DNA from: a virus
Lineage: Duplodnaviria > Heunggongvirae > Uroviricota > Caudoviricetes
Length of the DNA: 64,000 nucleotides
Reading direction: 5' to 3' (one strand)
Virus record (IMG/VR): IMGVR_UViG_3300035208_005635
Coordinates: 1 to 64,000 of that record
The notes beneath the pieces were generated by a model that saw only the letters and a program-made list of their open reading frames with translations, searched no databases and was not told the DNA's origin. This document shows, in pieces, positions 16,390 through 58,590 of this stretch; within the stretch, counting starts at the first letter, position 1, and the number at the start of each line of letters is the position of its first letter. The position numbers and the translations under genes are program-made.

Positions 16390-16395
16390 TTTTTC

Positions 16396-16815
16396 TTAAA
16401 TAATTCCCTTTTCTATTAGTATTTCTGTAAGATTTATCAACGCTTCGTTAATAGTTTTACCACAAGCAGGGAGGTCAGGAATATCCATTCTTACGTATTC
16501 ATTTTTTTCAGGATAGCTATAATAAGCCATCCACATACAATCTGTAGAGTAAAGAGCGGGGGATACTATTAATGTAAATTCTCTAATCTCTCTGAATCCA
16601 GTAGGAAATTCTACTTCTACAATTAAACTCTTAGGCATTGGGCAAGGAGAAGTAATTTTATTTGAATTAGGACTAACAGACATTATCTTTAAAAATAACT
16701 TAGGCGTATTTCCTAAAGGACTATTGCCAAGAAATATTTTTACAGCTTTTTCTATATCTGATTTTTTATTCTTTAATTCTTCTATTTGATTTTTTACTTC
16801 GTTTAAATTACTCAT
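16396..16815 (-). CDS. hypothetical protein
   Basis: 139 aa ORF. Confidence 0.4.
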   Translation of the reverse strand: MSNLNEVKNQIEELKNKKSDIEKAVKIFLGNSPLGNTPKLFLKIMSVSPNSNKITSPCPMPKSLIVEVEFPTGFREIREFTLIVSPALYSTDCMWMAYYSYPEKNEYVRMDIPDLPACGKTINEALINLTEILIEKGII

Positions 16816-22690: not shown

Positions 22691-22738
22691 ATTATAGCGT
22701 ATTCTGCCTTTTTTGTCAATAGCTAATCTGTGGATAAC
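22691..22738 (-). promoter_or_regulatory. conserved sigma70-type promoter P3
   Basis: In gene orientation: GTTATCCACAGATTAGCTA then TTGACA-N17-TATAAT. The -35 hexamer maps to 22714-22719 and the -10 to 22691-22696. Confidence 0.65.
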
Positions 22739-22742
22739 TTTT

Positions 22743-25700: not shown

Positions 25701-28010
25701 TTTTAATCTCCCCCTTTCGTCTCTTTCTGAAATCTTTTGAGTTATTCTTCTTTCAAAAAAGCTAAAGGATACTCCTAACTCCGAACCAAATTTAGGAAAA
25801 AGTAAATAGTCTCCTTCTCGAATTTCTCCCGCTTTTTTCCAAATAGGCTCTTTCAGAAATTCTCTTCTATTTTTTATATACTTAATATTTTCTTTTTCAT
25901 AAACAAGAATAGGATGATTACTTGTAACCCAATTCTCAGTATTTTTAGTTTGACCGACAATAGAAAACTTTCTCATTTCTCCTGAATACACATTCTTCAT
26001 TACTTTATAAACCTCTTTTAAATTTCCTATGTGAGTCCAAACACTATCAGAGACCTTAATATCCTCAATATTTTTTAATCCTTGACGAGTATAAATCTTT
26101 GTTCCTTTCTCATAGCATAAATAAATACTATTCACTTTCTGCATAGCATCTGCCCACTCTTGTTTGAATGTCTGAGCTCCACAGGTTACGCTTACAACAT
26201 TCTCCCAACCTTCCTGATAAAGGCTCATTGCGTCTATTTCTCCTTCGGTAATAACTAATTTATTCGCTCCTTTGATTACATCTCCGTTAAACAAAACCAT
26301 TTTTCCTCCGTGGACATTCATCATTTTAGGAGCTTCTGGGTCGAGGGGATTTCCTCGGTATCTAATATTTACCACTTTGCTGTTTTCAAATATTGGAATA
26401 GAAATGCTGGTTCCCGTCCAACCTATTTTAAAATGCTCTAATGTTTCAGGTAATAGCTTTCTAGTAACTGTTAAATATTCATAAATTTGACCCGTTACTG
26501 AGTTCTTGTCGTCTTTCTTCTCAAGTAGAGTCTTGTGATACTCTTCAATCGAGGTCTGGTATCTCTTCATTTCTACCTCGCTAGGACCTTTATTCTCCTT
26601 CTCCTGAGGTTTTTCTAGCTCTTGCGGGGATTTTACTGTCTCAGATAAATTACGCGAATTAGAGCCATTAGAGGGCTCAATTTCAGGTTTTGTATAATCA
26701 TTATAAAATTTCGCTAATGTTATTATATTTCCAGATTTACCGCAATTATGAACAGCACAACCTGAGACATTATAAGTATGACTATCTTCTACGGTTAAGT
26801 CATAAACATCTACATTTTTAACTTCTGTAGTAACTATTTTCTTTAAAAATTTTATTCCTTTTACAGAATTTTCTGAACAATCCCAACGAATAGTCCAACA
26901 TTTTTTATGGTGAACTCCTTTTTTATCTATTTTTTCTTCCTCTGAATTTATAGAAGCAGTTCTTCCTAATCCCCACAAGGCAAAATATATCTGAATAGCT
27001 AATTTCTTTGATACTGTTTTGCTAGAATTTTGTTTTTTAAACCCGTCTCCTGCAAAATACCCTTCTAAGATGTTTGGTAAAATATTAGAAGATAGAAGAC
27101 AGTTGGGTATATGTTTATTTTCTGCCCCCCTCCCGCAATTCTTTTCAAACCATCTTTCTAAGTAAACTCCAAAAACTTGAAGACTCTCTCCATTAGGACT
27201 AATAGAGGATTGAAGAGAGTTGAATCCATATTTCGTAAATAGTTTTTTTACTCTGTCTATGTTCTTCTGCTCTTTTTTATGAAAGGCAAAAGTAATACAT
27301 CTAGAAGATTTAGCTCCGTCTGCAATATATAATCCTACGCACCACCAAAATTCTCCGTCATTAAACATTTCTTCTGTAATAACTTTCGGCACAGGTCCTT
27401 TGGCTGATAAAATATAACTAGAAGCATCGCCACAATAATTAGGATAAAATCTGCTTACTTCATAAATATCTCGCCTATCAATTATGGGCATCTCCAAACC
27501 ATATAAAGGTTTTATTTTATCTGCCTCCAGCCAAATAGATTGTTTTGCTAAAGATTTAAAATTTCTTTTTTGATTCTTTAACTTTTTACTTCTAGGATTA
27601 CAGGAAAAAACAGATAAGAGATGGTTGGGAGTGCAAGTTATGTCTAGTAAATCTATAGAAGAATTACAAGACAAAGTAGTAAGCTTTCCTGTATATTTTC
27701 TCGAGATAGTATTGAGAACCTCTTTGTATCTTCCTTCTTTTGTTAAGACAAAATCGCCCTTTTTTATGTCTCTAATTTCTTTTATTCCGTTGCTTGTTCT
27801 TACCAAAGAATTTCCTGTGAAACATTTATGACAAAAATATAAACCTTTAGTGCTAATATAAAAATGGGTCCAATCTTCTTTATTTTCTCTGCAAAAAGGG
27901 CATTTATTAGTAATAATCTGGTCGCCTTCTGCTCTAGTTTTTAGTCCTTTGCTTTGAAGATAGTTAGTTATCTCTGAGGCAGTGGGATTAATGAAGTTTA
28001 AAGGAGTCAT
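22743..28010 (-). CDS. DNA primase-helicase (CHC2 zinc finger + Toprim + DnaB/gp4-like helicase) interrupted by three inteins
   Basis: The extein totals about 650 aa. It has a CPFC..H..C zinc finger, a Toprim domain (VITEGEIDAMS ... YDNDEAGQ), a P-loop ISGDTGVGK|T and a later helicase region (IFIDHLHF, LICHIKK). Three Hint insertions begin at CFTGNSLV, CYEKGTKI and CHAKGTKV; each ends in HN followed by C, C or T. Confidence 0.8.
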   Translation of the reverse strand: MTPLNFINPTASEITNYLQSKGLKTRAEGDQIITNKCPFCRENKEDWTHFYISTKGLYFCHKCFTGNSLVRTSNGIKEIRDIKKGDFVLTKEGRYKEVLNTISRKYTGKLTTLSCNSSIDLLDITCTPNHLLSVFSCNPRSKKLKNQKRNFKSLAKQSIWLEADKIKPLYGLEMPIIDRRDIYEVSRFYPNYCGDASSYILSAKGPVPKVITEEMFNDGEFWWCVGLYIADGAKSSRCITFAFHKKEQKNIDRVKKLFTKYGFNSLQSSISPNGESLQVFGVYLERWFEKNCGRGAENKHIPNCLLSSNILPNILEGYFAGDGFKKQNSSKTVSKKLAIQIYFALWGLGRTASINSEEEKIDKKGVHHKKCWTIRWDCSENSVKGIKFLKKIVTTEVKNVDVYDLTVEDSHTYNVSGCAVHNCGKSGNIITLAKFYNDYTKPEIEPSNGSNSRNLSETVKSPQELEKPQEKENKGPSEVEMKRYQTSIEEYHKTLLEKKDDKNSVTGQIYEYLTVTRKLLPETLEHFKIGWTGTSISIPIFENSKVVNIRYRGNPLDPEAPKMMNVHGGKMVLFNGDVIKGANKLVITEGEIDAMSLYQEGWENVVSVTCGAQTFKQEWADAMQKVNSIYLCYEKGTKIYTRQGLKNIEDIKVSDSVWTHIGNLKEVYKVMKNVYSGEMRKFSIVGQTKNTENWVTSNHPILVYEKENIKYIKNRREFLKEPIWKKAGEIREGDYLLFPKFGSELGVSFSFFERRITQKISERDERGRLKEGSEFGEEFIDIANTKMIQDKDFSYLLGLFLGDGHYSRKYRFELAYNTKTKKHILERVKKFFDKYKIKYSTVEKGNIGCLYSYDSRLYGFKNFYQEVAGDSSKMMPRMKSVSYDIFRSSLNKKEILQGLIDSDGTIDKKYKYIKFSNTNESIIKFFEILALQCGYGFTTHDWSYKEKTWKKRYTVSLAEISPSKKCQVQMKKFWENFYLLNRVRKISIKQVIDEETYNIDVKDDHSYITEQKVISHNCYDNDEAGQKGNLLAIEKLGASRCRIIEIPKEPGQKDLNDFFAVKKKTVDDFNNLYNSAKKITVESEHIKKIKEVAKTAMEEMKNPNVLRGMSTGWKLLDDVWRGMRDGNLIVISGDTGVGKCHAKGTKVLMYNGTLKKVEDIKIGDKLMGPDSTPRTVLKLARGREKMWKVEPKKGAENFVVNRNHLLHLKKNTKKYPHYPDTIDITIDNWIKLASKRKHVYYLEHPKSIKFKEKKVSLEPYFLGLWLGDGTSSGPCVTSADFEIEKYLRDYANRLNLQLVTKNQPNNKSKYYCLTREKKFEGVNKTHKGKYIYKTGKKGYGSALSLLSLLKKENLIENKHIPQNYKINSEKNRLELLAGLIDSDGNKEKVGYSFSNKNKQLCEDVIFLARSLGFFASTLKERTTTCLGRNFQSYRVYISGDVKRIPLKVKRKIVKKEVTDINWLTTRFRIWEWPVGDYYGFSLDKDQLYILENFIINHNTFFTQNMVMNIVNHKDEKNNPDPIPVMYFSLEQTPEEIAERFMMLQGNVRQSELIKKDAKGEFSKLEEVYKGIASKPIYLYSGYEKINTQLLGSVSEKAVKDFGCRIIFIDHLHFFASGDSRNRTIEISDIVRYCKLLARKLMVPVVLICHIKKLGNDNDKPTMEDLKDSSAIKQDADIVALLWRKRMANRELEKWARINIDKNRHGKSGERFFIVNEDTCKFEESLYGPTESKDTEEDPAQDPKIAKPPMNIPQGV
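23517..24593 (-). mobile_element. intein 3 (359 aa, LAGLIDADG) inside the helicase Walker A motif
   Basis: The extein reads GDTGVGK-[intein]-TFFTQ. Begins at CHAKGTKV. Contains YFLGLWLGDG and LAGLIDSDG. Ends IINHN with a +1 Thr. Confidence 0.75.
24960..26117 (-). mobile_element. intein 2 (386 aa, LAGLIDADG) within the Toprim domain
   Basis: Begins at CYEKGTKIYT. Contains LLGLFLGDGH and LQGLIDSDGT. Ends ISHN with a +1 Cys (CYDNDEAGQ). Confidence 0.75.
26745..27824 (-). mobile_element. intein 1 (360 aa, LAGLIDADG homing endonuclease) within the primase zinc-finger region
   Basis: Begins at CFTGNSLV. Contains LYIADGAKS and GYFAGDGFK. Ends VHN with a +1 Cys. Confidence 0.75.
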
Positions 28011-28021: not shown

Positions 28022-29026
28022 TTAATTTATTAAAGTTGTGCCGGTTAAGACACCTTCAATGTATTTTATATAGCTTTCTTGGTCTTCTTTGCTTATTTTA
28101 GAATAAAAATAACCAAAACATTCGCCGAGTATCTTGTCGTTACTGAAAAACCAGACAGGAGGACGGCTGTGATTTTTGTCTTTGTGCCAAGAATCTCTGT
28201 AAAAGCCGATAATTGCTAAGCTAATATCTAAAGGGCTGAAACTTAACAAAGCTTTCTTTAAAGCAATATCCGCAGGGTTGCCTATTAAAATCTTTCCTGA
28301 AGTGGCGTTGACTGAAACGAACTTCCAGTAAATCTCAAATATTCTTTTTCTAATTTCTGAAGAAAACTCTCCCCACTGTTTTATATCTTCCTGAAGAGGT
28401 GATTTAGAAATCATTTCAGGAGATTTTTTGGGTGAATCGAGAGGGAGAGTCTCTCTCTCTCTTTTCTTATTATTATATATATTATTATTGTATGTGGTTT
28501 TCACATAGCTTGGTATGTGATTTTCACATAGGTCTTCTGTGATTTTCACATAGCCTATGTGATTTTCACATACGTCTTTATTTTTGACAAAATCACCTTT
28601 TTGTTTTAATTTTATTTTCCCTAAAATTACTGTATCATACCAAAGTTGGGTAGTCTTGATATATTTAGTTTCAGGGTCTCTTTCTATTAATCCTTTTCTT
28701 TGAAGATTTGACAGAATGTTAAAAATAGACCACTGTTTAAATCCTAGCATTTGACTAATTTTTTTCTTTGAAGCATAGCACCACCCAGGGACTCTACTGC
28801 CAGGATTATTAGAAAGATTATAAATACTGTCTGCTACGCAATATTCATTCAGAGATAAGTCTAGTTTCCTTCTTGCCTCGTGTAATATAAGGGAATAACT
28901 AAGAACTTCTTTTTCTACTTCTTTATTTTCTTTTGGCATAGAATCACAAGTAAGGTTAATAAAAATACAGTATTCGGTTGTCATTGCTATTGCCCCCCAC
29001 TTGCGGTGATTAGCAATAGATAACAA
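28022..29026 (-). CDS. replication initiator-like protein (lambda O-like) with winged-helix region and internal origin iterons
   Basis: 334 aa. HTH-like region (QMLGFKQWSIFNILSNLQRKGLIE). Four palindromic iterons inside the coding sequence encode a repeated ...CENHI... peptide. Confidence 0.5.
   Translation of the reverse strand: MLSIANHRKWGAIAMTTEYCIFINLTCDSMPKENKEVEKEVLSYSLILHEARRKLDLSLNEYCVADSIYNLSNNPGSRVPGWCYASKKKISQMLGFKQWSIFNILSNLQRKGLIERDPETKYIKTTQLWYDTVILGKIKLKQKGDFVKNKDVCENHIGYVKITEDLCENHIPSYVKTTYNNNIYNNKKRERETLPLDSPKKSPEMISKSPLQEDIKQWGEFSSEIRKRIFEIYWKFVSVNATSGKILIGNPADIALKKALLSFSPLDISLAIIGFYRDSWHKDKNHSRPPVWFFSNDKILGECFGYFYSKISKEDQESYIKYIEGVLTGTTLIN
28451..28575. repeat. candidate origin: (CT)6, an AT-rich tract and four palindromic iterons TATGTGAtttTCACATA at about 21-bp spacing
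   Basis: GTGATTTTCACATAG at 28517, 28539 and 28559, and GTGGTTTTCACATAG at 28494. tattattatatatattattattg at 28466-28489. ctctctctctct at 28451-28463. Confidence 0.6.
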
Positions 29027-35277: not shown

Positions 35278-35324
35278 ATTATAGCATATCTAGGAAAAAA
35301 GTCAATAGCTAATCTGTGGATAAC
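35278..35324 (-). promoter_or_regulatory. conserved sigma70-type promoter P4
   Basis: In gene orientation: GTTATCCACAGATTAGCTA then TTGACT-N16-TATAAT. The -35 hexamer maps to 35300-35305 and the -10 to 35278-35283. Confidence 0.65.
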
Positions 35325-35336
35325 TTCTTGAATTTT

Positions 35337-38709: not shown

Positions 38710-39126
38710 ATTTTTTTAAACTTAAAAATAATTAGTTAATGCTTCTAGTATTGCTTCTCCTAAGGTTACTGCTTCTTTCTTATTCTTCGGTGCATCATCC
38801 ATACACATTATGTCCCCAATGGTGTCGCTTACAAAATCTTTTATTATTTGTGGTGTCATAACTTTTTATATTTTAACGAATTAAGATGTTCTAAATACAT
38901 ATTTTTGCAAATCGCAAAGTTTATAGGTCCTCTCCTACGCCGTCAAAAGAGTCATCATCTATATCGCGTTCTAAAGGCTCGTCTAGGTTGATTCCACAGA
39001 ATATCCTAGGTTTTGGTGCTGGCGGTTTTATTTCTGGCATATTAGGCTTGTGATGCTAGCCATTTTAGAACGATAAAGGCTATCGTTATGAAAAAGGCTA
39101 GGCATTTAATAAATTCTTTTAACATA

Positions 39127-40873: not shown

Positions 40874-40934
40874 ATTTTTTGGTCTCTTGTTATCAAAAAA
40901 TTTAGACTTTTTTGATAATTAAGAATTAAATAAA

Positions 40935-41729
40935 TTAGTCTTTTTCTGAAAATAATGCGTGAGTTGAGTCTAAGGCTATATAGTAATAACCATTACCACA
41001 ACCTTTATACTCTTCCGAATACCAAGCTCGGTTTGCTTCTGCTTTGTATTCAAATCTAGTGTCGTAACTTGTTCTGCCGTAGCAGGAATAATCTTTTTTA
41101 TTCTTTATGGCATTTGCTATATTATTCAACTCAAAGTCATTGTCGTCTTTCCAGCTTTTAATTTTCATTTTCTTGACTTCGGGCAGTATATTATATGTCC
41201 ATAAAATAGAAGTGTTTATGCCTTCTCCTCGGAGCAGTTTAGGCTCTATTAAGGCAATTGCTTTCGTTCTTTTCTCTTGTATCTCTTTCCAATTTTCTCC
41301 ATTAGACGGGGTATTATACACTTCGTAGGCTAATTTTAATTTATCTAGTCCGATGTCGAATGCTAATTTTATTTCTTCTTGAACTTCCGGCCATAGTCCG
41401 CTAGACACTAAGCGGTTAAGAACTTTTTCCCAAGCCTTCTTCCATTTCTGTTCTTCATTTCTTTTAGGGATTTCTTTTTCTTTTATAGCAATCAATCTGT
41501 CTTTATCTTCTTGAATACCCGCCCTAAGAAAATAAGTTTCCCAATAGTTTCCTTTTGCTTTTTTTCCTTTTGCTAGAATAAAAAGTTTTCCTTGTTCGCT
41601 ATAATTAGGAATGATTCTTCTTTTTTCTCCTGCCCAGAAAATTATAACTTGCTTTTCTGTTTTTAATCTTTCTAGGATTATTTCTTTAGCCTCATTAAGC
41701 GTAAATAGTCCACTTGTTTTGGTCTCCAT
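40935..41729 (-). CDS. hypothetical protein (METK start)
   Basis: 264 aa. Begins ATGGAGACCAAA. Confidence 0.45.
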   Translation of the reverse strand: METKTSGLFTLNEAKEIILERLKTEKQVIIFWAGEKRRIIPNYSEQGKLFILAKGKKAKGNYWETYFLRAGIQEDKDRLIAIKEKEIPKRNEEQKWKKAWEKVLNRLVSSGLWPEVQEEIKLAFDIGLDKLKLAYEVYNTPSNGENWKEIQEKRTKAIALIEPKLLRGEGINTSILWTYNILPEVKKMKIKSWKDDNDFELNNIANAIKNKKDYSCYGRTSYDTRFEYKAEANRAWYSEEYKGCGNGYYYIALDSTHALFSEKD

Positions 41730-41793
41730 AAAATTATTTTTAAATAAATAAATAAACTAAGAGGCGGAAATAAATTCTGCCTCCAGTGTTTAG

Positions 41794-42234
41794 TTATTTT
41801 TTAGCTTCTACTTCTTCTACTTGAGAGCGATGAAAGAGATGATAGACTTTAGGATACATATAATCTATGTCATCCTCGTCTGTTTTATTTTCTTTATTAT
41901 CTCTTTTGACTGCCATCCAAGTTATGCCGTAGATTTTACTCTTTTCTCCTTTTTTGACTTTGAAGCCATTTTGTCTCCAGCCCTGAAAGGTTTTAGAATC
42001 TACATAAGGCAATCCTTCAAGCTTCAGGGCTTTCATTTGCTTATAAACAAAATAAAATCCGTTGTAGCTTGTGCCCTTTTCTCCTGCCTCGCGAAATAAG
42101 GCTTCCGCCTCCATATCGTTTTCAGCTAAGAGCTTCGACTTTTGCCACTCTTCTCTAAGAGCAACGAAATATTCGTGTTTTTCTTCTTTGGAAAACTTTT
42201 TCTTTTCCATAAATTTTGGTCTCCTCACCACCAA
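41794..42234 (-). CDS. hypothetical protein
   Basis: 146 aa ORF. Confidence 0.4.
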   Translation of the reverse strand: MVVRRPKFMEKKKFSKEEKHEYFVALREEWQKSKLLAENDMEAEALFREAGEKGTSYNGFYFVYKQMKALKLEGLPYVDSKTFQGWRQNGFKVKKGEKSKIYGITWMAVKRDNKENKTDEDDIDYMYPKVYHLFHRSQVEEVEAKK

Positions 42235-42319
42235 GACTTTTGTAAAAGTCTTTATGGATTAAGGGTTAATTATAAACAAACCGCGGCCTCTAAGGAATAC
42301 TTAGGAGCCGTTCGTCTAT

Positions 42320-42535
42320 TTATTCTTTGTCTTTTTCTGCTATGAATACTAAACCCGTCTCTGGATATTTTACTCCTACTATTTTATACTTTTCCTCTGT
42401 TATCTGAATTCTCAATTTTACTGCCCACCCTCTAATGTCTTCTGCTCTTGTAAAATCCCCTAAGGATTCCATTAAAATTATCTGTTTCATCAGAATATTA
42501 TAATAGATAACAAGAGCTTGAACTTTTTTGTCCAT
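42320..42535 (-). CDS. hypothetical protein
   Basis: 71 aa ORF. Confidence 0.3.
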   Translation of the reverse strand: MDKKVQALVIYYNILMKQIILMESLGDFTRAEDIRGWAVKLRIQITEEKYKIVGVKYPETGLVFIAEKDKE

Positions 42536-42552
42536 AACTTTTTTTTGATTAT

Positions 42553-42990
42553 TTATTTATATTCTATTAAATCGTAAATACAACCTTTTTCTTCATCCAT
42601 TACCATCTCGATTTTATAGCCTAACTTTAATAGCTCGGTTTCAAGTCTTTCACGCTCTTCTTCTATGTCTGCTTCTCTGTCTCTTAATTGCCCTAATGTC
42701 ATATCTTGAACAACCATCTCCGCTTCTTCCGCTTCTATGTCATCAGGAATATCGTCATTGATTTTGAAAGGGTCATTGCTCGCATCTGCGATTGCTTCAC
42801 CTATTTTCTCATAGGCTATTTGATTACTTTTCCACTGGGTAAATAGTGTTTTAGTAATCTTTTCTTTCTCCTCTTCGATGTATTTTTGTCCTAGCTTTTC
42901 ATCTGTCGGGCTTAGAACAACAACGCCATTCTTCCAAACTTCCCAATAACCGAATTGTTCGGTCTTTTTTAATTCAAATTTGGTCTCCAT
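42553..42990 (-). CDS. hypothetical acidic protein (METK start)
   Basis: 145 aa. Begins ATGGAGACCAAA. Confidence 0.45.
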   Translation of the reverse strand: METKFELKKTEQFGYWEVWKNGVVVLSPTDEKLGQKYIEEEKEKITKTLFTQWKSNQIAYEKIGEAIADASNDPFKINDDIPDDIEAEEAEMVVQDMTLGQLRDREADIEEERERLETELLKLGYKIEMVMDEEKGCIYDLIEYK

Positions 42991-43060
42991 AAATTTTTTT
43001 ATATTTAATAAATAAAATAATAAGCTGAAAAAGAATATCTTTCAGCTTACTGTTTATTTT

Positions 43061-43396
43061 TTAAAAATGACTTATGATTCCCGAGAAGGCTTTTTCTGCT
43101 TTTTCTATTGTTGAAAAAGTCGCTCCAAAGTATTCATTTTCCCAACCTTGTTCGCATTCAGCGATACAAAGCATACCAGCGTCAACTCCAATGACTTGTC
43201 CTTTATAAGTCATTGAACCGTCTCCGTTAGGGGTGCCGTCTATCTTATGAAAGATTATTGCCTTATTATCGCTTCTACGAGCAGAAATTAAAGGCATCGC
43301 TTGCCCCTCAAAATTACAACCTAATTCGCAAATGGCGTGATACTGCCTGCTATTCATTATATAGCAAGGGTCAGTGATAATGAATTTTTTGGTCTC
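43061..43396 (-). CDS. hypothetical protein (start placed at the internal METKKF Met, not the 43456 ORF start)
   Basis: The ORF track gives 43061..43456. The conserved ATGGAGACCAAA start at 43396 is more likely the true initiation codon. Confidence 0.4.
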   Translation of the reverse strand, partial: ETKKFIITDPCYIMNSRQYHAICELGCNFEGQAMPLISARRSDNKAIIFHKIDGTPNGDGSMTYKGQVIGVDAGMLCIAECEQGWENEYFGATFSTIEKAEKAFSGIISHF

Positions 43397-43592
43397 CATA
43401 AAATTATTTTTTTCTTTGCTCTTAAATTGAGCAATAAAGGAAAGAGAAAGGGTCAACCTTTCTCCTCTACTTTATGGCTAAATTGTCCTCGGTAGAATTT
43501 TAGGTAAACTCTAAACCCGCAACAGGGGCAGATAAACCAATTGATAAAGTCTATCAACTGTTTATACCCCTCGCCTTTACATTTAGGGCATA

Positions 43593-43988
43593 TCATATTA
43601 GATTTTTTTCCTTAAATGAATAAAAAGCTTCTTTGGTAAATATGACGTGGTCTAATACTTCTATGCCTAAAATTTCTCCCGCCTTTACCAATCTTTCTGT
43701 AACCTTTCTGTCATCTTCAGAAGGTTCTATTTCTCCTGAGGGGTGATTATGGGCAATGATAATTGAATTAGTGTGATTGACTATCGCTGTTCTAAATGTT
43801 TCTCTTGGGTGAACTAAGCTGGCATTTAAAGTCCCAACGCTTACTATTTCAGAAACAATAATTTCATTTCTGGCATTTAGCAAGTGAACTAAAAAATGTT
43901 CTTTGAATTCACTCAATAGCATACCTCTTAAAATCTCCACCGCTTGCTTTGCGGAATTGACTTCAACTTTTTCTTTTTTGGTCTCCAT
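43593..43988 (-). CDS. radC: RadC-like JAB/MPN domain protein (METK start)
   Basis: IIIAHNHPSGEIEPSEDDRKVT contains the JAMM motif HNHPSG...D. Confidence 0.7.
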   Translation of the reverse strand: METKKEKVEVNSAKQAVEILRGMLLSEFKEHFLVHLLNARNEIIVSEIVSVGTLNASLVHPRETFRTAIVNHTNSIIIAHNHPSGEIEPSEDDRKVTERLVKAGEILGIEVLDHVIFTKEAFYSFKEKNLI

Positions 43989-44058
43989 AATGTTTTTAGA
44001 TTAAAAAATTATCGTCAGAAGCCTGTCAGATACTTTATGGGTATTTGACAGAATCTAA

Positions 44059-44448
44059 TTATAATTTTACCTGATAGCTTTCACCGCTTATTTTGTCGGT
44101 TACAGCTATTGCACTATAGCCCTCTGCTTGGGCATATTCTGCGAATTGAGCATAGCTACCGACTTCTTCCTCATTAGCCTCGTTTACAAATTGTCTTTCG
44201 TCTATAGGGCAATTAGGGACATCAGAGGATAGACGCTTAATTCTAAAAACTTTTCCAACGCTCTCTAGCTCTTCTATGTCTTCTTCCTCTTCTTCAATGC
44301 CTCTAAGCTCTAAAAAGTCCTTAATCGCACTCGATAGCTTCAAAGCGGATAAATTATGGTCGGTCGCTATCATTTTTATACTTTCCTCAAAAGTTCCCTT
44401 GCTTATTAACTCAGCAAGGTTTTTGACTGTGTAGTTTTTGGTCTCCAT
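44059..44448 (-). CDS. hypothetical acidic protein (METK start)
   Basis: 129 aa. Begins ATGGAGACCAAA. Confidence 0.4.
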   Translation of the reverse strand: METKNYTVKNLAELISKGTFEESIKMIATDHNLSALKLSSAIKDFLELRGIEEEEEDIEELESVGKVFRIKRLSSDVPNCPIDERQFVNEANEEEVGSYAQFAEYAQAEGYSAIAVTDKISGESYQVKL

Positions 44449-44498
44449 ATTATTTTTAGAAAAAATTAAAAACTTATTGAGATTTTAATTTTTCTTTA

Positions 44499-45068: not shown

Positions 45069-45981
45069 ATTATTTTGAGGTAATTTGACGATGAAGAGAA
45101 GTTAATCTAACATATTCAGGATTCTCTTTATTGTCTTTACCGTTAATAATAAGAATATCAATTTTTTTGTTGAGAGTTCTCAACGCTTCTGTCTTGTTCA
45201 TATTTTTTTTATTTTTATTTTTATGGGATTATATTCCCAAAATTATAAAGCCAATCACCTCGCTTCAAATCATCTATCTAAAATTTGATAGATTATTGAA
45301 TGCCTTATGGTTTAGCGATAATTGGCTTTACTATTTGCGTATATAATTTAGCCGCTTTTGCCTATAATATAGGCTTCAAGCAGATAAAAAACAAAACAAA
45401 AGTTAAAAACTGATTAGACAGCTTTTAACTTTAATTTGATTTCTATTTATGGTCAACTCTATTTATCCATCCGGCAAATTAAGTTTTTAAATAATCAAAC
45501 GGGGAAAGTCAAAAAATTAAATTCTTAACTTCCCGCCGTTTGCTTATTTATAATTAAAAATAGTCTAATTATTAGCCCGCAAGTGTAATTTACGAAGTGG
45601 TTTTATTTGGGAAAATAAATTTCTCAAATGTCTCTTTTAAGGCCAGCCTCAAATAAATGAGGTAAAGATTTATATTAGCTTAGTAGCTTCAAAATCTCTT
45701 AAAGCTTCGTTTCTCCGTTTTTGAGTGGGGCACTTCTTTTCCCTCACCTCAAATACAATCCTTTCACCTTCAACTTGCTTAACTAATAACTATTTTTTTT
45801 AATGTTTTTAAATATCAATCAATAATGTTTTAAGTTGTCCATTTTTTAACTCTTCTTAATTAAACAACTTTAATAACTTATAATCTAATTATAGCTTATT
45901 TTTCATTTAATGTCAACCCTAAGCGGGGGCGAAATAGGCTATTTTTTAGCTTAATATTAGCGGTTATTTAAGAGGTTAAAA

Positions 45982-45994
45982 GTTATCCACAGTC
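45982..45994 (+). promoter_or_regulatory. isolated DnaA-box-like element GTTATCCACAGTC (copy A)
   Basis: Truncated copy of the promoter upstream element. Lies in the non-coding strand-switch region. Confidence 0.4.
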
Positions 45995-46046
45995 TTTCGC
46001 TTAAAACGGCATAAATAAAAATAAAAAAATAATATTAAAAAACGGA

Positions 46047-46060
46047 ATTATCCACAGTCT
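46047..46060 (+). promoter_or_regulatory. isolated DnaA-box-like element ATTATCCACAGTCT (copy B)
   Basis: Second truncated copy, 65 bp downstream of copy A. Confidence 0.4.
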
Positions 46061-47020
46061 AATAATAAACCAATCAAAAATTTTAGCCTTTTCTGTCGCT
46101 TAACTCTACACAATTAAAAAACTGATTGGCGGCGTAAACTACACAAAAAGCAAAATCAAAAAAACGGAAATCAAAAACAACTAAAAGCTAATAAATATAA
46201 ATACTATTTCGCAGTTTTCTAACACCCGCCCGCATAACAAAAAATTGACAGAAAATAAAATAAGTAGCGATAAAAAGACAAATAAAACGGCAAGCGGGCT
46301 ATTTGAGAAGAGAGAAAAAAGTGGTGAGATTTTTAATTATTGTCAATTAAATATCTAAAAAACAAGATAAGCAAAAAACAAAATGAGAGCTAAAACATAA
46401 TGAGTAAAAAAAGAATATAATATAATAAACATAAACATTTCCGCAATAATAGAATTCTCAGAGAAATTGAAAGCATATAGAGAGATAAAAGTAAAAGAGC
46501 ATAAGAGAATGAGGGGGCGGATATTAGATGTAAAAAAACTGATTGATGTTAAATAAGCAAATAATAGGCAGATAAATGCCGATAAATATTAAACGATTGG
46601 CTAACATTCGCTTACGCATAGCATAGACAGATAGACATATAATAGGCAGGTAGACGAGCATTAGGCTAAGACAGGCTATTCTCGTAGCTTTGATATTAGC
46701 CTATAATACAGCCAAAAAGAACACTGCTAATAATAGCCACTAATAGCTAATATTAAACAATAGCCATTCTATTGCCTTTAACCGACCCACTAGAATGGCG
46801 TAGAATAAATAAATAACAATAAGTCCGCATAAGAGATATCTTTCAGAGATTCCCTCGTTGATAGCTAATATAAGGCATATATACCCCCCTATAAATATCT
46901 AAAGGGTTAATTTATAACAATATCAATGATAGCCTTTCAATTTCTCTAGAATTTTTAATAACCCGATTAGTTTTTTAATTTTAATAAAAAGCATATAATA
47001 TATGGCTAATATCAGATAAA

Positions 47021-47068
47021 GTTATCCACAGATTAGGTATTGACTTTTTTTGTAATTTTTGCTATGCT
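47021..47068 (+). promoter_or_regulatory. conserved sigma70-type promoter P5 (plus strand)
   Basis: GTTATCCACAGATTAGGTA then TTGACT-N17-TATGCT. The -35 hexamer is at 47040-47045 and the -10 at 47063-47068. AT-alternating repeats follow before the ATG at 47145. Confidence 0.6.
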
Positions 47069-47144
47069 GTATATAGATATATAAATATATACATTTTTTA
47101 TTTAATTTATTACCGTATATAAATATATAGATATATAAAGATAT

Positions 47145-47465
47145 ATGGCTACTACAAAGATATTATTTTCTATAGAGCAGAAGAAAAAAGACTTATTTAA
47201 ACTAAAGGCTGTTTCGGAGAGAAAGACCATTACCGAGGTGCTAGTTAAATTTGTCGATAGCTATATCGGCAAAGGTTCTCCTGAAAATAATAAACAATTT
47301 GAATTTAGCGAAAAATCTGAGGAATTTCAAAAAGGATTAATTCCTCCTAAAGAAGAAGTTAGTGTTATTTCAGAAAAGGCTGAAAATTCTGCGGAGGTTA
47401 AGACAATCCCTAGAGCTAATCATTCTAATAAAAAGCCTTATCCTACTTTTTTTAAGAAAGTTTAA
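47145..47465 (+). CDS. possible ribbon-helix-helix (CopG/Arc-like) DNA-binding protein
   Basis: The N-terminal KILFSIEQKKKDLFKLKAVSERKTITEVLVKFVDSYI pattern is RHH-like. First gene of the plus-strand block. Confidence 0.35.
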   Translation: MATTKILFSIEQKKKDLFKLKAVSERKTITEVLVKFVDSYIGKGSPENNKQFEFSEKSEEFQKGLIPPKEEVSVISEKAENSAEVKTIPRANHSNKKPYPTFFKKV

Positions 47466-47857: not shown

Positions 47858-48112
47858 ATGAGAGAAAAAATAGTATTACATTTAAATAAAGGGCATTTAA
47901 AGATAATTCGCAATAATGCTGAAGTGTTTTTGCCTATAGAAGCCGTTAAATTAATCTCTGATATGCTAGAAGCTTCAGGAATGACAAATCAAGAGATTAA
48001 AAAGAGTGTTTGGAAAGAGACTGAATATGATATTGGCTTTTCTTTGGTCCGAGCCGATATAGATAGCCCTGTAAGATGGTTCAGTAAAAAAATTATTATT
48101 AAGCCTTTATAA
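47858..48112 (+). CDS. hypothetical protein
   Basis: 84 aa ORF. Confidence 0.35.
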   Translation: MREKIVLHLNKGHLKIIRNNAEVFLPIEAVKLISDMLEASGMTNQEIKKSVWKETEYDIGFSLVRADIDSPVRWFSKKIIIKPL

Positions 48113-50415: not shown

Positions 50416-50820
50416 TTGTATTATATGTATGAATTGAAACTAAAACATAAATTTTCGGCGGCTCATCATTTAGAAAATTATGATGGTGCTTGTGCTAATG
50501 TTCACGGTCATACTTGGTCTGTTCTTATATCTATAAAGACAAATACTTTGGTTAACGATATGGTTGTTGACTTTAAGGAGCTTAAGGCTTTAATAGATGA
50601 GAGATATGACCATAAAGATATAAATAAACAAGTTGTTTTTAATCCTACTGCTGAGCATATTTCGGGAGATATTTATAGTTTAATAAAAGATTATCTCAGA
50701 CCAAAGAACGGAGAGGAAGAAGTTCCGTATACAATTAAGGTAACTGTTTGGGAGGCAGACAATGCTAGTATTACTTATACCGGTGTTGACGCTATTAGTG
50801 AACGCCGGATTACAAATTAG
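50416..50820 (+). CDS. queD: 6-carboxy-5,6,7,8-tetrahydropterin synthase QueD
   Basis: 134 aa T-fold protein with the CANVHGHTW (Cx3HGH) zinc/catalytic motif typical of QueD/PTPS. Confidence 0.75.
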   Translation: MYYMYELKLKHKFSAAHHLENYDGACANVHGHTWSVLISIKTNTLVNDMVVDFKELKALIDERYDHKDINKQVVFNPTAEHISGDIYSLIKDYLRPKNGEEEVPYTIKVTVWEADNASITYTGVDAISERRITN

Positions 50821-51754: not shown

Positions 51755-52486
51755 ATGCTAAAAGTTCACGAAGTCTTTAAGTCATTCCAGGGGGAGGGCG
51801 TGGACATTGGAATGCCGATGGTTTTTGTTAGGTTTGTTGGTTGTAATCTTGCTTGCAAATGGTGTGATACTTTATACGCTAGTCGTCCTAATTCTGAATA
51901 TAGAGAATATTTTGCTTTGCCTTTAATAGAAGAGATAGAGAAATTTGAAAATACTAGAGGAGTTACTTTAACAGGCGGGGAGCCGATGGTTCAGGATACC
52001 TTAGAACTAGACACGCTAATTTATGAATTAAAGGGAAAAGGACATTTTATAAATATAGAAACTAATGGAATTTTTCTTCCTGTTTTAACTAACGATAAGT
52101 TAGTAGATAGATTTAGTATTTCTCCTAAATTAAGCTCTTCAAAAAATAAAAATAGTCCTAATTTAGATACTTTATCTAAATACTTAAACGATTATCCTCA
52201 TAAGATATTCTTTAAATTTGTTATAAGTAATGAAGAAGAGCTTTTAGAGATGTTTGCTGTTTTGGAAAGCTTAAAACAAAAAGATATTAATATTTTGAAT
52301 ATACCTATAGTAGTTCAGCCTAACATAGACCCAAAAAAGGCAGAAAATTTTGTTGCTCAACAAGATGCTTTTAAAGACATATTAAAAGAAATATTATTTA
52401 AACACGCTTACTTATCTAGACAATATAATATTCGAGTTATTCCTCAATTCCATAAATATCTATGGGCAAACAAAAAAGGAGTTTAA
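51755..52486 (+). CDS. queE: 7-carboxy-7-deazaguanine synthase QueE (radical SAM)
   Basis: N-terminus LKVHEVFKSFQGEG (QueE signature). CNLACKWCDT radical-SAM CxxxCxxC. 243 aa. Confidence 0.8.
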   Translation: MLKVHEVFKSFQGEGVDIGMPMVFVRFVGCNLACKWCDTLYASRPNSEYREYFALPLIEEIEKFENTRGVTLTGGEPMVQDTLELDTLIYELKGKGHFINIETNGIFLPVLTNDKLVDRFSISPKLSSSKNKNSPNLDTLSKYLNDYPHKIFFKFVISNEEELLEMFAVLESLKQKDINILNIPIVVQPNIDPKKAENFVAQQDAFKDILKEILFKHAYLSRQYNIRVIPQFHKYLWANKKGV

Positions 52487-55105: not shown

Positions 55106-56896
55106 ATGATAAATATTACCCAAGAGCAATTAGAAAAAGATTCTTTGGAATTAGCAAAGAAAATTAAAAAATTTGGAACTAAGTTTGGATATGTAATAGG
55201 TATTTCAAGAGGGGGAATTATCCCAGCTCAAATAATTGCTAAAGAATTAGAAATTCCTTTCAAAAGTTCTGAGGAAATTAAATTCTTTGATTTTTCAAAG
55301 ATGCCCATTTCTTACCCTGGTGCTAGATTGCTTATTGTTGACGATTTAATTGATTCAGGGAAAACTCTGAAAGAGTTAGCTTTTAACCTTTCTTCTTTTA
55401 CGGTCAGAACGGCTGTTTTGTATAAGAAGAAAAATAAAAATCAAGCTATTTGTCCTAATTATTTTTTAAAGGAAGTTCCTAATCAATGGGTGTGTCTTCC
55501 TCACGAAGAAGGTTATGGAGTAGAAGACCATATTACTAGAATATTAGAATTTGTTGGAGAAGACCCAACAAGAGAAGGGTTAAAAGATACCCCTAGACGG
55601 GTCGCTAAGATGTATACTGAGATATTTAGAGGATACGACCCTACTCAGAAACCTAAGATAACTACTTTTCTTAACGGAAAGGATGGTATTACTTATAGTC
55701 AGATGATTATAGACGAAGGAACTTTTTATTCGCATTGCTTAACAGGAGATACGCAAATAAAAACTGTCAGAGGTATTTTCAGAATAAAGGATTTAGTAGG
55801 AAGAACAGAAGATGTCTTTTGTTATGATGAGAAGAATAAGAGATTTACAATTGCAAAAGCAAAAGACATAAGAATGACCTCTAAAAAAGCAGAGATTCTT
55901 AAGCTCACCACTGACTATGGGGCAATTTATGCAACAAGCGAGCATAAATTTTTGACCTACAACAGAGGTTGGGTAATGTTAAAAGACCTAAAACCAAAAG
56001 ATAGCTTAGTTGCTTTAAACTCTAGACTCTCAGGAAGTTACCTTACAACACAAGTATCTGATTCAAGAGATGGTTGGAGGAAAGAACATAATTTTATCTA
56101 TGAGGAGATGTCAGGAGAAAAATTAAAAAGTAAGGAGTTAGTTCATCATATTGATGGTGATAAAAGAAATAATATCTATGAGAATTTACAGAAGATGATA
56201 AATAAAGACCACACAGGGCTACACGCCAGAAAATATATGGCCTCCCTTTCTTCTGAACAAAAGTCAGAAATAGGCAAAAAAGCAAATTGGGGTTTTATTA
56301 GTTTAAGAGAAAAAGAGCCAGAGAAGTATAAATTAGTTAAAGAAAAAGCTAGAAATTCTTTAAAAAAGATGTATTCTAGCGAGAGGGGAATAGCTTTAAA
56401 GGAAAAGAAAAGTCGCGATACAAAAATTTGGTGGAAAAACAGAAAAGAAAAGAAGATGAAAAATCACCGAGTTGTAAAAGTTGAGTTTTCAGGATTTGAG
56501 CCTGTTTATAATATGGAAGTAGAGAAGTATCATAATTTTGTGGCTAATAGCCTCGTAGTCCATAATTGTGAGCATCATATGGTTCCATTCTTCGGAAAAT
56601 ACTATTTTGCGTATATACCAAATAAGACAATTATTGGTTTAAGTAAAGTTGCTCGAATAGTTGATTATTATTCTGCTAGATTGCAGGTTCAAGAAAGACT
56701 TGTCAGACAAATTGTAGATGAGATTGAGAAGTCCTGTAAGCCTCGTGGTATAGCATTGGTTATGAAGGCGGAGCATTTATGCAAAACAATGCGAGGTGTT
56801 AAAAAACAAGGTGTTATGACTGCTAGCGAGCTAAGAGGCTCTTTTGTTAAAGATTCTAAAGTTAGACAAGAATTTTTATCACTAATAAAAATATGA
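55106..56896 (+). CDS. folE: phosphoribosyltransferase-domain / GTP cyclohydrolase I (FolE) fusion, interrupted by an HNH intein
   Basis: Residues 1-135 form a type-I PRTase (VIGISRGGIIPA ... LLIVDDLIDSGKTL). Residues 140-210 plus the C-terminal 109 aa form FolE (EDPTREGLKDTPRRVAKMY ... FYSHC / CEHHMVPFFGKYYFAYIPN...). The intein sits exactly between YSH and CEHH. Confidence 0.75.
   Translation: MINITQEQLEKDSLELAKKIKKFGTKFGYVIGISRGGIIPAQIIAKELEIPFKSSEEIKFFDFSKMPISYPGARLLIVDDLIDSGKTLKELAFNLSSFTVRTAVLYKKKNKNQAICPNYFLKEVPNQWVCLPHEEGYGVEDHITRILEFVGEDPTREGLKDTPRRVAKMYTEIFRGYDPTQKPKITTFLNGKDGITYSQMIIDEGTFYSHCLTGDTQIKTVRGIFRIKDLVGRTEDVFCYDEKNKRFTIAKAKDIRMTSKKAEILKLTTDYGAIYATSEHKFLTYNRGWVMLKDLKPKDSLVALNSRLSGSYLTTQVSDSRDGWRKEHNFIYEEMSGEKLKSKELVHHIDGDKRNNIYENLQKMINKDHTGLHARKYMASLSSEQKSEIGKKANWGFISLREKEPEKYKLVKEKARNSLKKMYSSERGIALKEKKSRDTKIWWKNRKEKKMKNHRVVKVEFSGFEPVYNMEVEKYHNFVANSLVVHNCEHHMVPFFGKYYFAYIPNKTIIGLSKVARIVDYYSARLQVQERLVRQIVDEIEKSCKPRGIALVMKAEHLCKTMRGVKKQGVMTASELRGSFVKDSKVRQEFLSLIKI
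55736..56566 (+). mobile_element. intein (277 aa) with HNH homing endonuclease in FolE
   Basis: Begins CLTGDTQIKT. HNH region ELVHHIDGDKRNNIYENLQKMINKDHTGLH. Ends VVHN with a +1 Cys that is the catalytic CEHH cysteine. Confidence 0.75.
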
Positions 56897-57237: not shown

Positions 57238-58590
57238 TTGTTCTTTACAAAGGAGAAGAGTATGAAAAAAGTAATACTTGATTTTGCTACAACAGAGGTG
57301 GTAAGAGGTAGTTTTGGATACGATTCTTACCTACTTTATTCCGCCTTAAAATCAAGAGGAGAAGAAGTTTCCCTAATAGAAGATGTTAGCCCTATGCAAA
57401 TTCACAAAGGTATAGGGGAAGAAAGTGACGAATGGATTATCCATTACTGGAGCTATCCGCAAAAGACCTTTATCGATTGGGCAATGAAAAAGCTTCGCGG
57501 TAAAAAAAGTTTCATCGGTTATAAGCCTTTAATTCGTAGGGATAATCTTCCCTTGTTAAAAGAATACGATAATAAGGCTATTTACGAAGGAATGAAGTAT
57601 TTGCCGGAAATACTGAAGGAGTTTAAGTATGGTCTTATGTCAGATTGCGACGAGCATATAAAGGGAAGTAAAATGGAAAAGGTAATGCCGTTGTTTCTCA
57701 GTTATGGATGCCCGAATGTTTGTGCCTTTTGTCCTATACCAGCAAATAGGAGAGATTCGACTCCGAGGAGAGTAGAACTAGATTTTGACGATTGTTCCAG
57801 AACTCTCCTATCTATGCGGGAAAAAGGTTACAATAGTATTCATTTTTGCGACGAGGATTTCTTTATGAATACAGATAGAGCAGAAACGATTATTTCCTTT
57901 CTGTCTAGTCTAGGCGGATTCAAATACATTGCCTTGGCTTCTGTTAGCTCTTTCTATAAAATTGTTGAAAGAGTAGGTATTCAAAAAATTCTCGATTCTG
58001 GATTACAGGTAGTAGAGCTTGGTTTAGAAACCAAAGACCTCGCTCTTCGCAAAAAAATGAAAAAAACAGGTTCAGAAGAACAGTTGCAGTATCTTTTAAA
58101 CATAAAGGAGTTAAAGGATAAAATATTTTTTCTTTCTGTAAGTCTGTTTCCAGGAGAAACTCTGGAAAGTGTTGAAAAGACCGGTGCTTTCTTAAAGCAA
58201 TACGGTCCTACAATAACTTCTCTTACTAGCAGAGTAAAGGCTAATTCTTCTGTCGGAGGTTTAGGTCAATTCTTTCAGCATTATACTGGATGTATTGACG
58301 AGGAAACATTAGCAAAGCAGGGAAAATTTTATGAAAAAATCTTTCCGACAAGATTAGAGCCGAGCTTTGCCCCATATAGCCTTTTGAAGCAAAAACCAAA
58401 ATGGAAGTATAATCAAGAAATTGCTTTGAATGAATTATTTTGGTGGAGGGATGTTTATAATCTCGACCCAATGAAACTCTTCTATACCAGGATAGACGGT
58501 TCTAAAACTGTCGACGAGATAGTGGGAAATAATACAGATATTTTGAAGCATATTTTACTTCTTGCTCGTCTCGGAAAGTTGGAAAGTTAA
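57238..58590 (+). CDS. radical SAM enzyme with N-terminal B12-binding-like domain (class B type)
   Basis: LFLSYGCPNVCAFCPI is CxxxCxxC. N-terminal Rossmann-like region (KKVILDFATTEVVRGSFGYDSYLLYSALK...). The start may be the Met at 57262. Confidence 0.6.
   Translation: MFFTKEKSMKKVILDFATTEVVRGSFGYDSYLLYSALKSRGEEVSLIEDVSPMQIHKGIGEESDEWIIHYWSYPQKTFIDWAMKKLRGKKSFIGYKPLIRRDNLPLLKEYDNKAIYEGMKYLPEILKEFKYGLMSDCDEHIKGSKMEKVMPLFLSYGCPNVCAFCPIPANRRDSTPRRVELDFDDCSRTLLSMREKGYNSIHFCDEDFFMNTDRAETIISFLSSLGGFKYIALASVSSFYKIVERVGIQKILDSGLQVVELGLETKDLALRKKMKKTGSEEQLQYLLNIKELKDKIFFLSVSLFPGETLESVEKTGAFLKQYGPTITSLTSRVKANSSVGGLGQFFQHYTGCIDEETLAKQGKFYEKIFPTRLEPSFAPYSLLKQKPKWKYNQEIALNELFWWRDVYNLDPMKLFYTRIDGSKTVDEIVGNNTDILKHILLLARLGKLES

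Follow-up and report, generated by a model that had tools for sequence, protein, structure and literature searches.

The box at gene starts in the window

The stretch of DNA analysed here, called the window, consists of positions 1 to 64,000 of the IMG/VR virus record IMGVR_UViG_3300035208_005635 (Caudoviricetes). It represents 64 kb of a source contig of 98.8 kb, and about 35 kb of the contig lie outside it. Its minus strand carries a cluster of small genes whose start sites share a short sequence, referred to below as the box. One form of this sequence is the 12-mer ATGGAGACCAAA, which encodes Met-Glu-Thr-Lys (METK) and was found in five exact copies, all on the minus strand (41718-41729, 42979-42990, 43388-43399, 43977-43988 and 44437-44448). 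The expected count was 0.00, with a maximum of 0, in 100 dinucleotide-preserving shuffles. Every copy forms the first ATG of an open reading frame (ORF) of 112-264 amino acids (aa). The identical 12-mer on five minus-strand gene starts, described in the original prediction, was thereby confirmed, except that the third gene starts at 43399 and not at 43396. A Logan contig of 4,964 nucleotides (nt) from the same phage, 99.98% identical, was given the same five starts when its genes were called independently. The five genes had been called consecutive; they do form one cluster, but three ORFs intervene, namely those at 43453-43596 (47 aa) and 42320-42535 (71 aa) and an ArdC-N-like gene at 41794-42210.

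The core of the 12-mer, GAGACCAAA, occurs in seven copies, all on the minus strand within 40886-44445 (3.6 kb), with none in the rest of the 64 kb; a count over the whole window thus places neither the 12-mer nor its core at random positions. The two extra core copies, GGAGACCAAAAtttATG at 42224 and AGAGACCAAAAaatATG at 40887, are both situated 5' of a start codon, 9-10 nt from the ATG and out of frame with respect to METK. The first precedes the ArdC-N-like gene (start 42210) and the second an 80-aa gene (start 40873). Because of these two copies, the same bases are seen to occupy one of two stretches relative to the ATG, +3 to +13 or about -14 to -4, in differing frames. Judged from its sequence, the 12-mer is the start-overlapping form of a box of 9-11 nt, GGAGACCAA[A/T][A/T]. 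The start-overlapping form reads ATGGAGACC and the upstream-register form GGAGACCAAAATTTATG. As RNA, the tag is a stretch of 10-11 bases, GGAGACCAAA, common to the start sites of unrelated early genes. The seven boxes of the window are as follows.

44436-44446, minus strand: box GGAGACCAAAA, start-overlapping; ATG 44448-44446, 129-aa ORF 44059-44448
43976-43986, minus strand: box GGAGACCAAAA, start-overlapping; ATG 43988, RadC-like JAB-domain gene 43593-43988
43387-43397, minus strand: box GGAGACCAAAA, start-overlapping; ATG 43399, 112-aa ORF 43061-43399
42978-42988, minus strand: box GGAGACCAAAT, start-overlapping; ATG 42990, 145-aa ORF 42553-42990
42214-42224, minus strand: box GGAGACCAAAA, upstream register; GGAG 10 nt before ATG 42210, ArdC-N-like gene 41794-42210
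41717-41727, minus strand: box GGAGACCAAAA, start-overlapping; ATG 41729, 264-aa ORF 40935-41729
40877-40887, minus strand: degenerate box AGAGACCAAAA, upstream register; ATG 40873, basic protein of 80 aa 40631-40873

GGA is present in six of the seven window boxes. The copy at 40887 has AGAG in its place and its ortholog in the related contig L123, AAAGACCAAAA, has AAAG; both retain GACCAAAA.

Codon usage of the phage was compared with the codons of the box. GAG accounts for 26% of the Glu codons, ACC for 13% of the Thr codons and AAA for 73% of the Lys codons, and E-T-K is expected to be written GAG-ACC-AAA in only 2.5% of cases. The synonymous positions in the box are invariant despite these disfavoured codons (P = 0.025 per gene). 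This choice of codons against usage therefore indicates selection on the nucleotides and not on the METK peptide. The box is predicted to have a mean unpaired probability of ~0.6, mostly above that of its flanks. When the first five residues were removed, the seven tagged proteins showed no significant similarity (best E-value 0.033), in agreement with the earlier statement that the encoded proteins are otherwise unrelated. The RadC-like JAB domain (E = 1e-40) is the only confident family assignment among the five METK proteins, and the ArdC-N-like gene weakly matches ArdC anti-restriction proteins in their N-terminal domain.

The A/T-rich leaders devoid of a Shine-Dalgarno (SD) sequence, noted before for these genes, were also found here. 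The typical leader of window genes reads ...aaaataatATG, and an SD-like 4-mer (GGAG, GAGG or AGGA) was observed at -20 to -4 in 11 of 100 called window genes. Terminator-like or A/T hairpins stand before six of the seven tagged genes, several of them terminator-like with a T-run:

44023-44051, minus strand: hairpin CTGTCA(N17)TGACAG, upstream of the RadC cassette
43441-43467, minus strand: terminator-like hairpin with T-run, upstream of the cassette starting at 43399
43019-43051, minus strand: terminator-like hairpin with T-run, upstream of the cassette starting at 42990
8 nt upstream of the ArdC-N-like box, minus strand: hairpin AAGACTTTTacAAAAGTCTT
41761-41784, minus strand: terminator-like hairpin GGAGGCAGAAtttaTTTCCGCCTC with T-rich tail, upstream of the cassette starting at 41729, read from the sequence
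directly upstream of the degenerate box 40877-40887, minus strand: A/T hairpin of 11 bp

Transcription diverges from a non-coding region of 1.9 kb at ~45.25-47.15 kb (45250-47150). Inside it, a perfect sigma-70 consensus promoter points into the tagged arm:

45888-45916, minus strand: TTGACA-17-TATAAT

The tagged genes are called early because this promoter points leftward into them. About 350-480 nt downstream of the promoter, two terminator-like hairpins (45534-45503 and 45432-45399) were observed, and the divergent region may hold an early non-coding RNA or leader, or a replication origin. A repeat, CTAATCTGTGGATAACTTTT, which includes the perfect DnaA-box sequence TTATCCACA, has seven intergenic copies, four on the plus strand (8979-8998, 16378-16397, 22727-22746 and 35313-35332) and three on the minus strand (45973-45992, 46038-46057 and 47012-47031). 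They are found 60-115 nt 5' of genes or in the 1.9-kb non-coding region, and TTATCCACA is present in the relatives L134-L142 as well. The repeat may be a site associated with promoters, or it may belong to a replication origin.

The tagged cluster also encodes small zinc-ribbon ORFs with a CxxC...CxxC pattern (window 43453-43596; L124 5549-5767). One is translationally coupled to RadC and kept in L123, while another, in L124/L125, has its own upstream box. Such small zinc-ribbon proteins might bind nucleic acid.

The phage of the window is large, with 11 tRNAs, a GroEL gene, a family-A DNA polymerase and an intein-bearing primase-helicase. Genes of queuosine type for 7-deazaguanine are also present; QueD-like, QueE-like, GTP cyclohydrolase and further radical-SAM genes were located at 50425-50820, 51755-52486, 55106-56896 and 57262-58590, which suggests 7-deazaguanine modification of the phage DNA. 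A palindromic sequence, TGTGATTTTCACAT, has three copies at 28516-28572 on the plus strand, 20-22 nt apart, in or near the ORF 28022-29026. Isolated phages gave no match to the region by megablast, and their DNA polymerases reached at most 34% identity by tblastn. For a neighbouring gene of 143 aa, a metagenome scan returned only the contig already in hand and a viral scan returned nothing. Genome contigs searched with the GroEL gene for a host gave only a 45% match, to the end of a contig from a metagenome-assembled genome.

Related phages and a stem-loop element complementary to the box

Relatives were found through homologues of the RadC-like and ArdC-N-like proteins. Six further lineages have syntenic early regions (L123-L127, L128/L129, L134/L135, L136, L137 and L138, and L142; L136 is the same contig as L177). 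All of them possess GGAGACCAA except L134, whose boxes are only degenerate, for example ATGGAGACT and GGAGACTATG. In total, 30 distinct GGAGACCAA sites were counted in 7 lineages, 30:0 on the sense strand and all in the early arm. The ATG is offset from the first G of the box by -2, -3 or +13/+14, and all sites lie within ~15 nt of a start. Twelve sites have the form ATGGAGACC (METK...), one in L137 reads ATG-GGAGACC (MGDQK...) and 17 are in the upstream register. A METK start is shared by the five window proteins and seven proteins of the relatives. Positions 10-11 of the box are A/T only, while the flanks carry ~0 bits of information. A recent duplication with a shared N-terminal exon, named beforehand as a case that would refute the prediction, does not fit these nearly uninformative flanks and unrelated proteins. 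Nor does an enhancer of the downstream-box type, another earlier suggestion, since more of the distinct family sites lie 5' of the ATG (17/30) than 3'.

Orthologous genes were found to change register. For RadC, the box overlaps the start in the window and L128 (METKKEK... and METKTIN...), while in L123-L126 it has the upstream register, ttAGGAGACCAAATTTATG, and the protein starts MTKAEPIN. The box of the ArdC-N-like gene has the upstream register in L123, L136 and the window, overlaps the start in L137 and shows one-base variants, GGAGGCCAA and GGAGACCCAA, in L138 and L142. Together with the out-of-frame copies and the MGDQK register of L137, these switches establish that conservation is at the nucleotide level, as had been proposed. 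Aligned with L123, the DNA around the boxes of the window is a mosaic with 73-86% identity, and the box is unchanged. Whole cassettes differ between the two (those of a 264-aa and a 118-aa gene), the 264-aa cassette being missing from L123, and the junctions of these differences fall in leader or terminator tails. The L123 ortholog of the 112-aa ORF has an extra N-terminal segment of 56 aa directly after the box. Untagged genes of the cluster are ORFs which overlap or closely follow the preceding gene, along with an HNH homing endonuclease of L123. The latter (L123 2831-3268, 145 aa) was recognised by its CxxC...HxxxxxxCxxCH motifs; it is inserted behind the genes for RadC and the zinc ribbon, comes with a TATAAT-like box of its own, is not found in the window and is the only free-standing untagged gene of the L123 cluster.

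The box was sought beyond these lineages. None was present in L130, whose RadC is 75% identical. L130 instead repeats a leader of ~60 nt before two consecutive genes (360-712), composed of TTTGTTTATAAA, a TCAGTTT...AAACTGA hairpin, AAAMAAGT and then the ATG, and part of this leader hairpin also precedes the box upstream of RadC in L123. Twenty-four distant IMG/VR loci taken from the ArdC-N-like alignment (matches at most 57% identical) showed neither box nor RNA, except a locus that duplicates L136, and L121, which holds a 31% relative of the 264-aa protein, had no box. IMG/VR scans with a 14-mer and a 19-mer around the start gave single chance matches only, two of them with no ORF at the match and the third an ordinary SD-type site. 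In the literature, the 10-mer was met only in primers and T7 transcripts. The nearest cellular relatives of the short RadC (P0010, P0027, P0044 and P0079) are annotated as Portnoybacteria, Roizmanbacteria and Microgenomates of the candidate phyla radiation, and a more distant ArdC-N-like homologue is on contig L141 from a groundwater metagenome; both are weak hints to the environment or host.

When GGAGACC was listed on both strands, exactly one antisense-oriented copy was found in each of the related lineages that bear the RNA described here. This copy is GGAGACCAATC (GGAGACCAG in L134) and reads (A)GA(T/C)TGGTCTCC on the sense strand. It is part of an intergenic element which is positioned 2.4-5 kb downstream of the ArdC-N-like gene in the same arm, the next gene being variable. 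The element-bearing lineages are L123/124, L134, L136, L137, L138 and L142, with the element at the following positions.

L123 6855-6945: stem-loop element
L124 7234-7340: stem-loop element
L134 12577-12668: stem-loop element
L136 13078-13160: stem-loop element
L137 13446-13533: stem-loop element
L138 14952-15044: stem-loop element
L142 13487-13567: stem-loop element

The element is ~75-95 nt long. It is predicted to fold into two stems, an outer one of 11-14 bp and an inner one of 5-8 bp, with an asymmetric internal loop rich in A and C between them and an apical loop of 6 nt, UUGGUC (CUGGUC in L134); the closing pairs, GA/UC, are weak. The box has its exact complement in the loop region, GA(U/C)UGGUCUCC. 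Covariation supports the outer stem, where 9/14 pairs are compensated according to RNAalifold. With both stems specified, 91.7% of cells were paired against 28-46% with slid partners, and pairs changed on both sides numbered 13 against 0-4 in the slid controls. The observed value was reached by 0/500 shuffles on four measures and by 1/500 on the fifth, and the single-sequence folding z-scores of the element range from -2.5 to -5.1. No Rfam family, the C4 family included, matched at the element in a cmscan of L123, L136 and L137 (E <= 1), and no known RNA family matched at the boxes. On this comparative sequence evidence, the element is a predicted structured intergenic RNA that has not been described previously.

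For duplexes of the inner hairpin with the tagged starts, energies of -16 to -24 kcal/mol were predicted, against a median of -7 to -9 kcal/mol with other starts of the same phage, and the predicted pairing reaches 13 bp for some targets. In L134, where the boxes drifted to ATGGAGACT, the loop region CUGGUCUCCAUG extends the complementarity into the AUG. The loop starts with UUGG and fits the YUNR U-turn motif, which Franch et al. reportedly found in 1999 to be common in antisense recognition loops. A search of IMG/VR with the 16-mer of the loop gave 32 matches, 31 of them unrelated (mostly one conserved coding sequence) and only the L136 contig real. The sense assignment of the element rests on the strand of the neighbouring genes and on the element filling an intergenic gap.

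Inteins and homing-endonuclease insertions vary among the relatives. The primase-helicase ORF of the window encodes 1755 aa (22743-28010) and its GTP cyclohydrolase ORF (55106-56896) includes an HNH segment. In L123, a Hint/LAGLIDADG insert is present in the MoxR ATPase (9293-11548, 751 aa), which has none in the window (408 aa), and a QueD-like gene of L134 (4164-5006) has a LAGLIDADG insert.

Possible readers of the box

The clade-wide, frame-independent tag on the starts of early cassette genes is a genuine finding. The box is always inside the footprint of the initiating 30S ribosome, on either side of the ATG. This position rule, along with the strand bias and the predicted accessibility, speaks for an operator that affects the initiation of translation or the stability of the mRNA, and the box is likely to be a post-transcriptional operator in the translation-initiation region. 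A cis element on translation initiation, in line with the translational operator suggested at the outset, is the best-supported class of explanation. The best explanation at present is that the box tags the first cistron of small early cassettes in large, SD-poor, uncultivated phages, the tagged genes including the RadC-like gene, the ArdC-N-like gene and ORFans. Probably one trans-acting reader controls the whole set, shutting off or tuning the early genes.

For the reader itself, the sequence complementarity favours an antisense stem-loop RNA of the phage, a tentative choice which stands a little short of an even chance; for the phage of the window itself its standing is lower still. In the relatives, a dedicated antisense RNA is plausible. 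In such a mechanism, early transcripts would start at the strong promoter region and traverse the cassette array, with the box in the ribosome-binding region of each first cistron. The stem-loop element, farther down the same arm, would be transcribed later. Its loop would nucleate on the exposed GACCAA of the box and the pairing would grow to 9-13 bp as the weak top of the stem opens. The duplex would then block 30S binding or expose the mRNA to decay, and the tagged set would be shut off or tuned jointly. As the box would work on either side of the ATG, the start codon could be moved by one base (AAGGAG to ATGGAG) with control kept, and a new gene joined behind the box would come under control at once. 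The 16S anti-SD sequence is GAUCACCUCCUU, and the loop GAUUGGUCUCCUU can be likened to it. The fullest version of this scheme, a self-contained RNA regulon in which new early cassette genes (anti-restriction, RadC-like and ORFan genes) are captured behind a universal 9-11-nt tag, one stem-loop RNA with a loop resembling the anti-SD switches the set off and the tag may serve as an exchange joint, is doubtful as a whole.

Several observations weigh against an antisense RNA as the reader. The element was not found in the window with the covariance model run with filters off (best E ~1), and the window has no sense-strand GGTCTCC and no near variant of it in a comparable hairpin. The slot where L123 holds the element, after a 45-aa ORF starting MPEI..., is occupied in the window by unrelated sequence or other genes:

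38860-38920, minus strand: syntenic slot after the 45-aa MPEI... ORF

Even so, six perfect boxes are kept in the window, where the RNA was not detected, so either the RNA is in the remaining 35 kb of the contig or the box has another reader. Unless the RNA lies outside the window, the phage would have lost it in recent times or would rely on a different reader. The element may also be transcribed from the opposite strand, which folds more stably in 4/6 cases, by 5-7 kcal/mol in three of them and by ~14 kcal/mol in the fourth, and on which three A.C mismatches of the sense strand become G.U pairs. Co-occurrence of box and RNA is moreover confounded by phylogeny because the carriers form one clade.

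Four candidates for a pairing partner in the window were rejected. The structure around TTTGGTTTCC at 18858 (intergenic) is not comparable; a hairpin at 48034-48074 is complementary over no more than 7 nt, is inside an ORF and is not conserved; the loop AGAUUGGACCC of the covariance-model match at 27910-27820 (E ~1) does not pair with the box; and the anticodon arm of the phage tRNA-Met (GGTCTCAT, 49301) is off by one in register, with its stem paired within the tRNA.

The main rival is a protein reader, either a RegA-like repressor encoded by phage or host and binding RNA sequence-specifically, or a RegB-like endoribonuclease, with the stem-loop as an extra site, a decoy or unrelated. This is unlikely, yet it would account for the six perfect boxes of the window, and the tagged cluster includes genes for several small zinc-ribbon proteins and a basic protein of unknown function. 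In phage T4, RegB and ribosomal protein S1 act on a single-stranded sequence of 11 nt, GGAGRAYARAA, which is located in the start regions of early genes and serves to inactivate early mRNAs together (PMC1702504). The box GGAGACCAAAA agrees with this consensus at 10/11 positions, has equal length, is predicted to be unpaired and marks early genes. RegB sites hardly ever have C at positions 5-6 and never at position 9, and their GGA is 100% conserved (PMC1702504). The box, on the other hand, has the strongly disfavoured C at position 6, and the two orthologous copies that lack the required GGA (AGAG and AAAG) still hold GACCAAAA. No RegA or RegB family was among the 25 of 31 Pfam families listed for 87 window proteins, and T4 RegB searched by tblastn and phmmer against the window and seven relatives gave nothing better than E = 0.28. 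A protein reader also leaves the exact complement in a covarying RNA loop unexplained.

Less likely again, the box could be a strong ribosome-binding site (AGGAG with an A-rich spacer) in a mobile cassette, its identity kept by recombination and its METK forms arising from a point change which creates an in-frame ATG just upstream. The arrangement AGGAG-N8-ATG of T7 gene 10 is close to the upstream-register boxes, and GGAG is indeed placed 9-10 nt before the ATG in 17/30 sites. One base turns AAGGAGACC into ATGGAGACC, and METKF-type starts retain the AAATTT spacer. The region is hyperplastic, with whole-cassette differences between the window and L123, and most tagged genes are behind terminator-like hairpins. 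Such cassettes would resemble the PeSLs of T4-type phages, modules of stem-loop, leader, ribosome-binding site and start before ORFans in hyperplastic regions, which flank indels (PMC2839356, PMC4122927) and end with an SD and start codon (PMC4122927). Against this, the phage is nearly SD-free (11/100 genes) and an SD is unable to act from +3 to +13, while the 13 start-overlapping sites keep nine bases including three synonymous ones, across lineages whose aligned flanks are ~73-86% identical. ACCAA is as invariant as GGAG and persists where GGAG decayed. The 9-11 bases of the box are too short to be homogenised by homologous recombination, and no -35/-10 pair accompanies it.

A role at the DNA level, as a promoter or initially transcribed element of a phage-specific polymerase or sigma factor or as an asymmetric operator of a DNA-binding regulator heading each cassette, is improbable and the least compatible with two fixed registers. 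T7 class III transcripts start with GGGAGACC, which the box resembles, and T-rich TTTGTTTATAA(T/A) boxes stand before several cassettes. The tagged genes come first after terminator-like hairpins, so each would need read-through or its own promoter. However, nothing is conserved at a fixed upstream distance, and the spacing from putative -10-like boxes varies over ~15-55 nt. In METK-type genes the ATG is 5' of the box, so that a transcript starting at the box would lack it, and these genes have no alternative in-frame start. A DNA site alone predicts neither the two registers, nor the 30:0 strand bias, nor a covarying hairpin round the inverted copy. A leaderless mRNA is disfavoured because the usual A-rich leader is retained upstream of the METK starts. 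The site GGTCTC of BsaI/Eco31I, tried as a restriction signal, was rejected as well: ~10 copies outside the boxes equal a rough composition estimate of ~10.

Lastly, METK as a selected N-terminal peptide signal for capsid targeting or degradation, suggested by the twelve proteins starting with it, is effectively refuted by the 17 sites where the box stands in the untranslated leader, by the copy read in a different frame (MGDQK), by orthologs that lack METK and are otherwise intact, and by codons fixed against phage usage.

To our knowledge, early-gene shut-off in lytic phages is understood in molecular detail only for a few models such as T4 RegA and RegB. If the antisense reading is true, one tag and one antisense RNA would co-regulate fast-evolving early genes in a clade of environmental phages, likely with anti-defence or host-takeover roles, and a multi-target, trans-acting phage RNA would join the few known phage riboregulators. 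It would also explain how newly captured genes come under correct control immediately, and GGAGACCAA at a start would offer a sequence rule for early or anti-defence candidates in metagenomic phage contigs.

Comparison with known systems

The box resembles an SD sequence in holding (A)GGAG, placed 9-10 nt before the ATG in the upstream register. It differs from an SD in that conservation extends 5-7 nt past the anti-SD pairing and in that only two of the seven window copies have the placement of an SD. PeSLs share more of its context. Terminator-like or A/T hairpins precede six of the seven window copies, much as the stem-loop of a PeSL precedes its ribosome-binding site and start codon, and the hyperplastic location, the gain and loss of cassettes and an N-terminal indel between the window and L123 are also alike. 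PeSLs, however, are 50-80 bp long and carry a near-consensus sigma-70 promoter, whereas here 9-11 nt are conserved, the upstream information is ~0 and a promoter scan upstream of the boxes gave no consistent -35/-10 pair. Unlike in PeSLs, the stem-loops differ in sequence from cassette to cassette.

T4 RegB cuts GG|AG with stimulation by ribosomal protein S1. The T4 sites double as SDs 5' of the ATG, while five of the seven window boxes are 3' of it. The RegB consensus is degenerate and the box of this phage is invariant.

In bacterial small RNA (sRNA) regulons, one RNA with a seed of 7-12 nt pairs with the start regions of many mRNAs, and the candidate RNA would act in a similar way. Bouvier et al. 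are said to have found in 2008 that sRNA seed pairing from the SD to about the fifth codon represses mRNAs; with this range, both registers of the box could work. The candidate RNA would differ from sRNA regulons in that the targets are early genes of the phage itself and the target box is far more uniform.

The closest parallels in phages are small antisense RNAs of temperate immunity. The CI RNA of P4 is a structured RNA from the operon of its target, and its loop pairs with boxes and blocks expression. The c4 RNA of P1/P7 (immI), in an account which cites Citron & Schuster 1990, is a small structured RNA in the same operon as its target, with loops that pair with mRNA boxes and thereby block expression (PMC8201110). 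Unlike c4, the candidate RNA has no sequence or structure match to the Rfam C4 family and is not in the window. The c4 and CI RNAs control one operon in temperate immunity through two sites, whereas here 3-7 unrelated early genes would be controlled at their own starts, and the phage type of the window looks lytic while those of c4 and CI are temperate. In the six related lineages, the candidate RNA is likewise situated in the same arm, downstream of the tagged genes, and is predicted to show the complement of the box in a loop. The control proposed would belong to a known kind, antisense or operator control of phage translation initiation.

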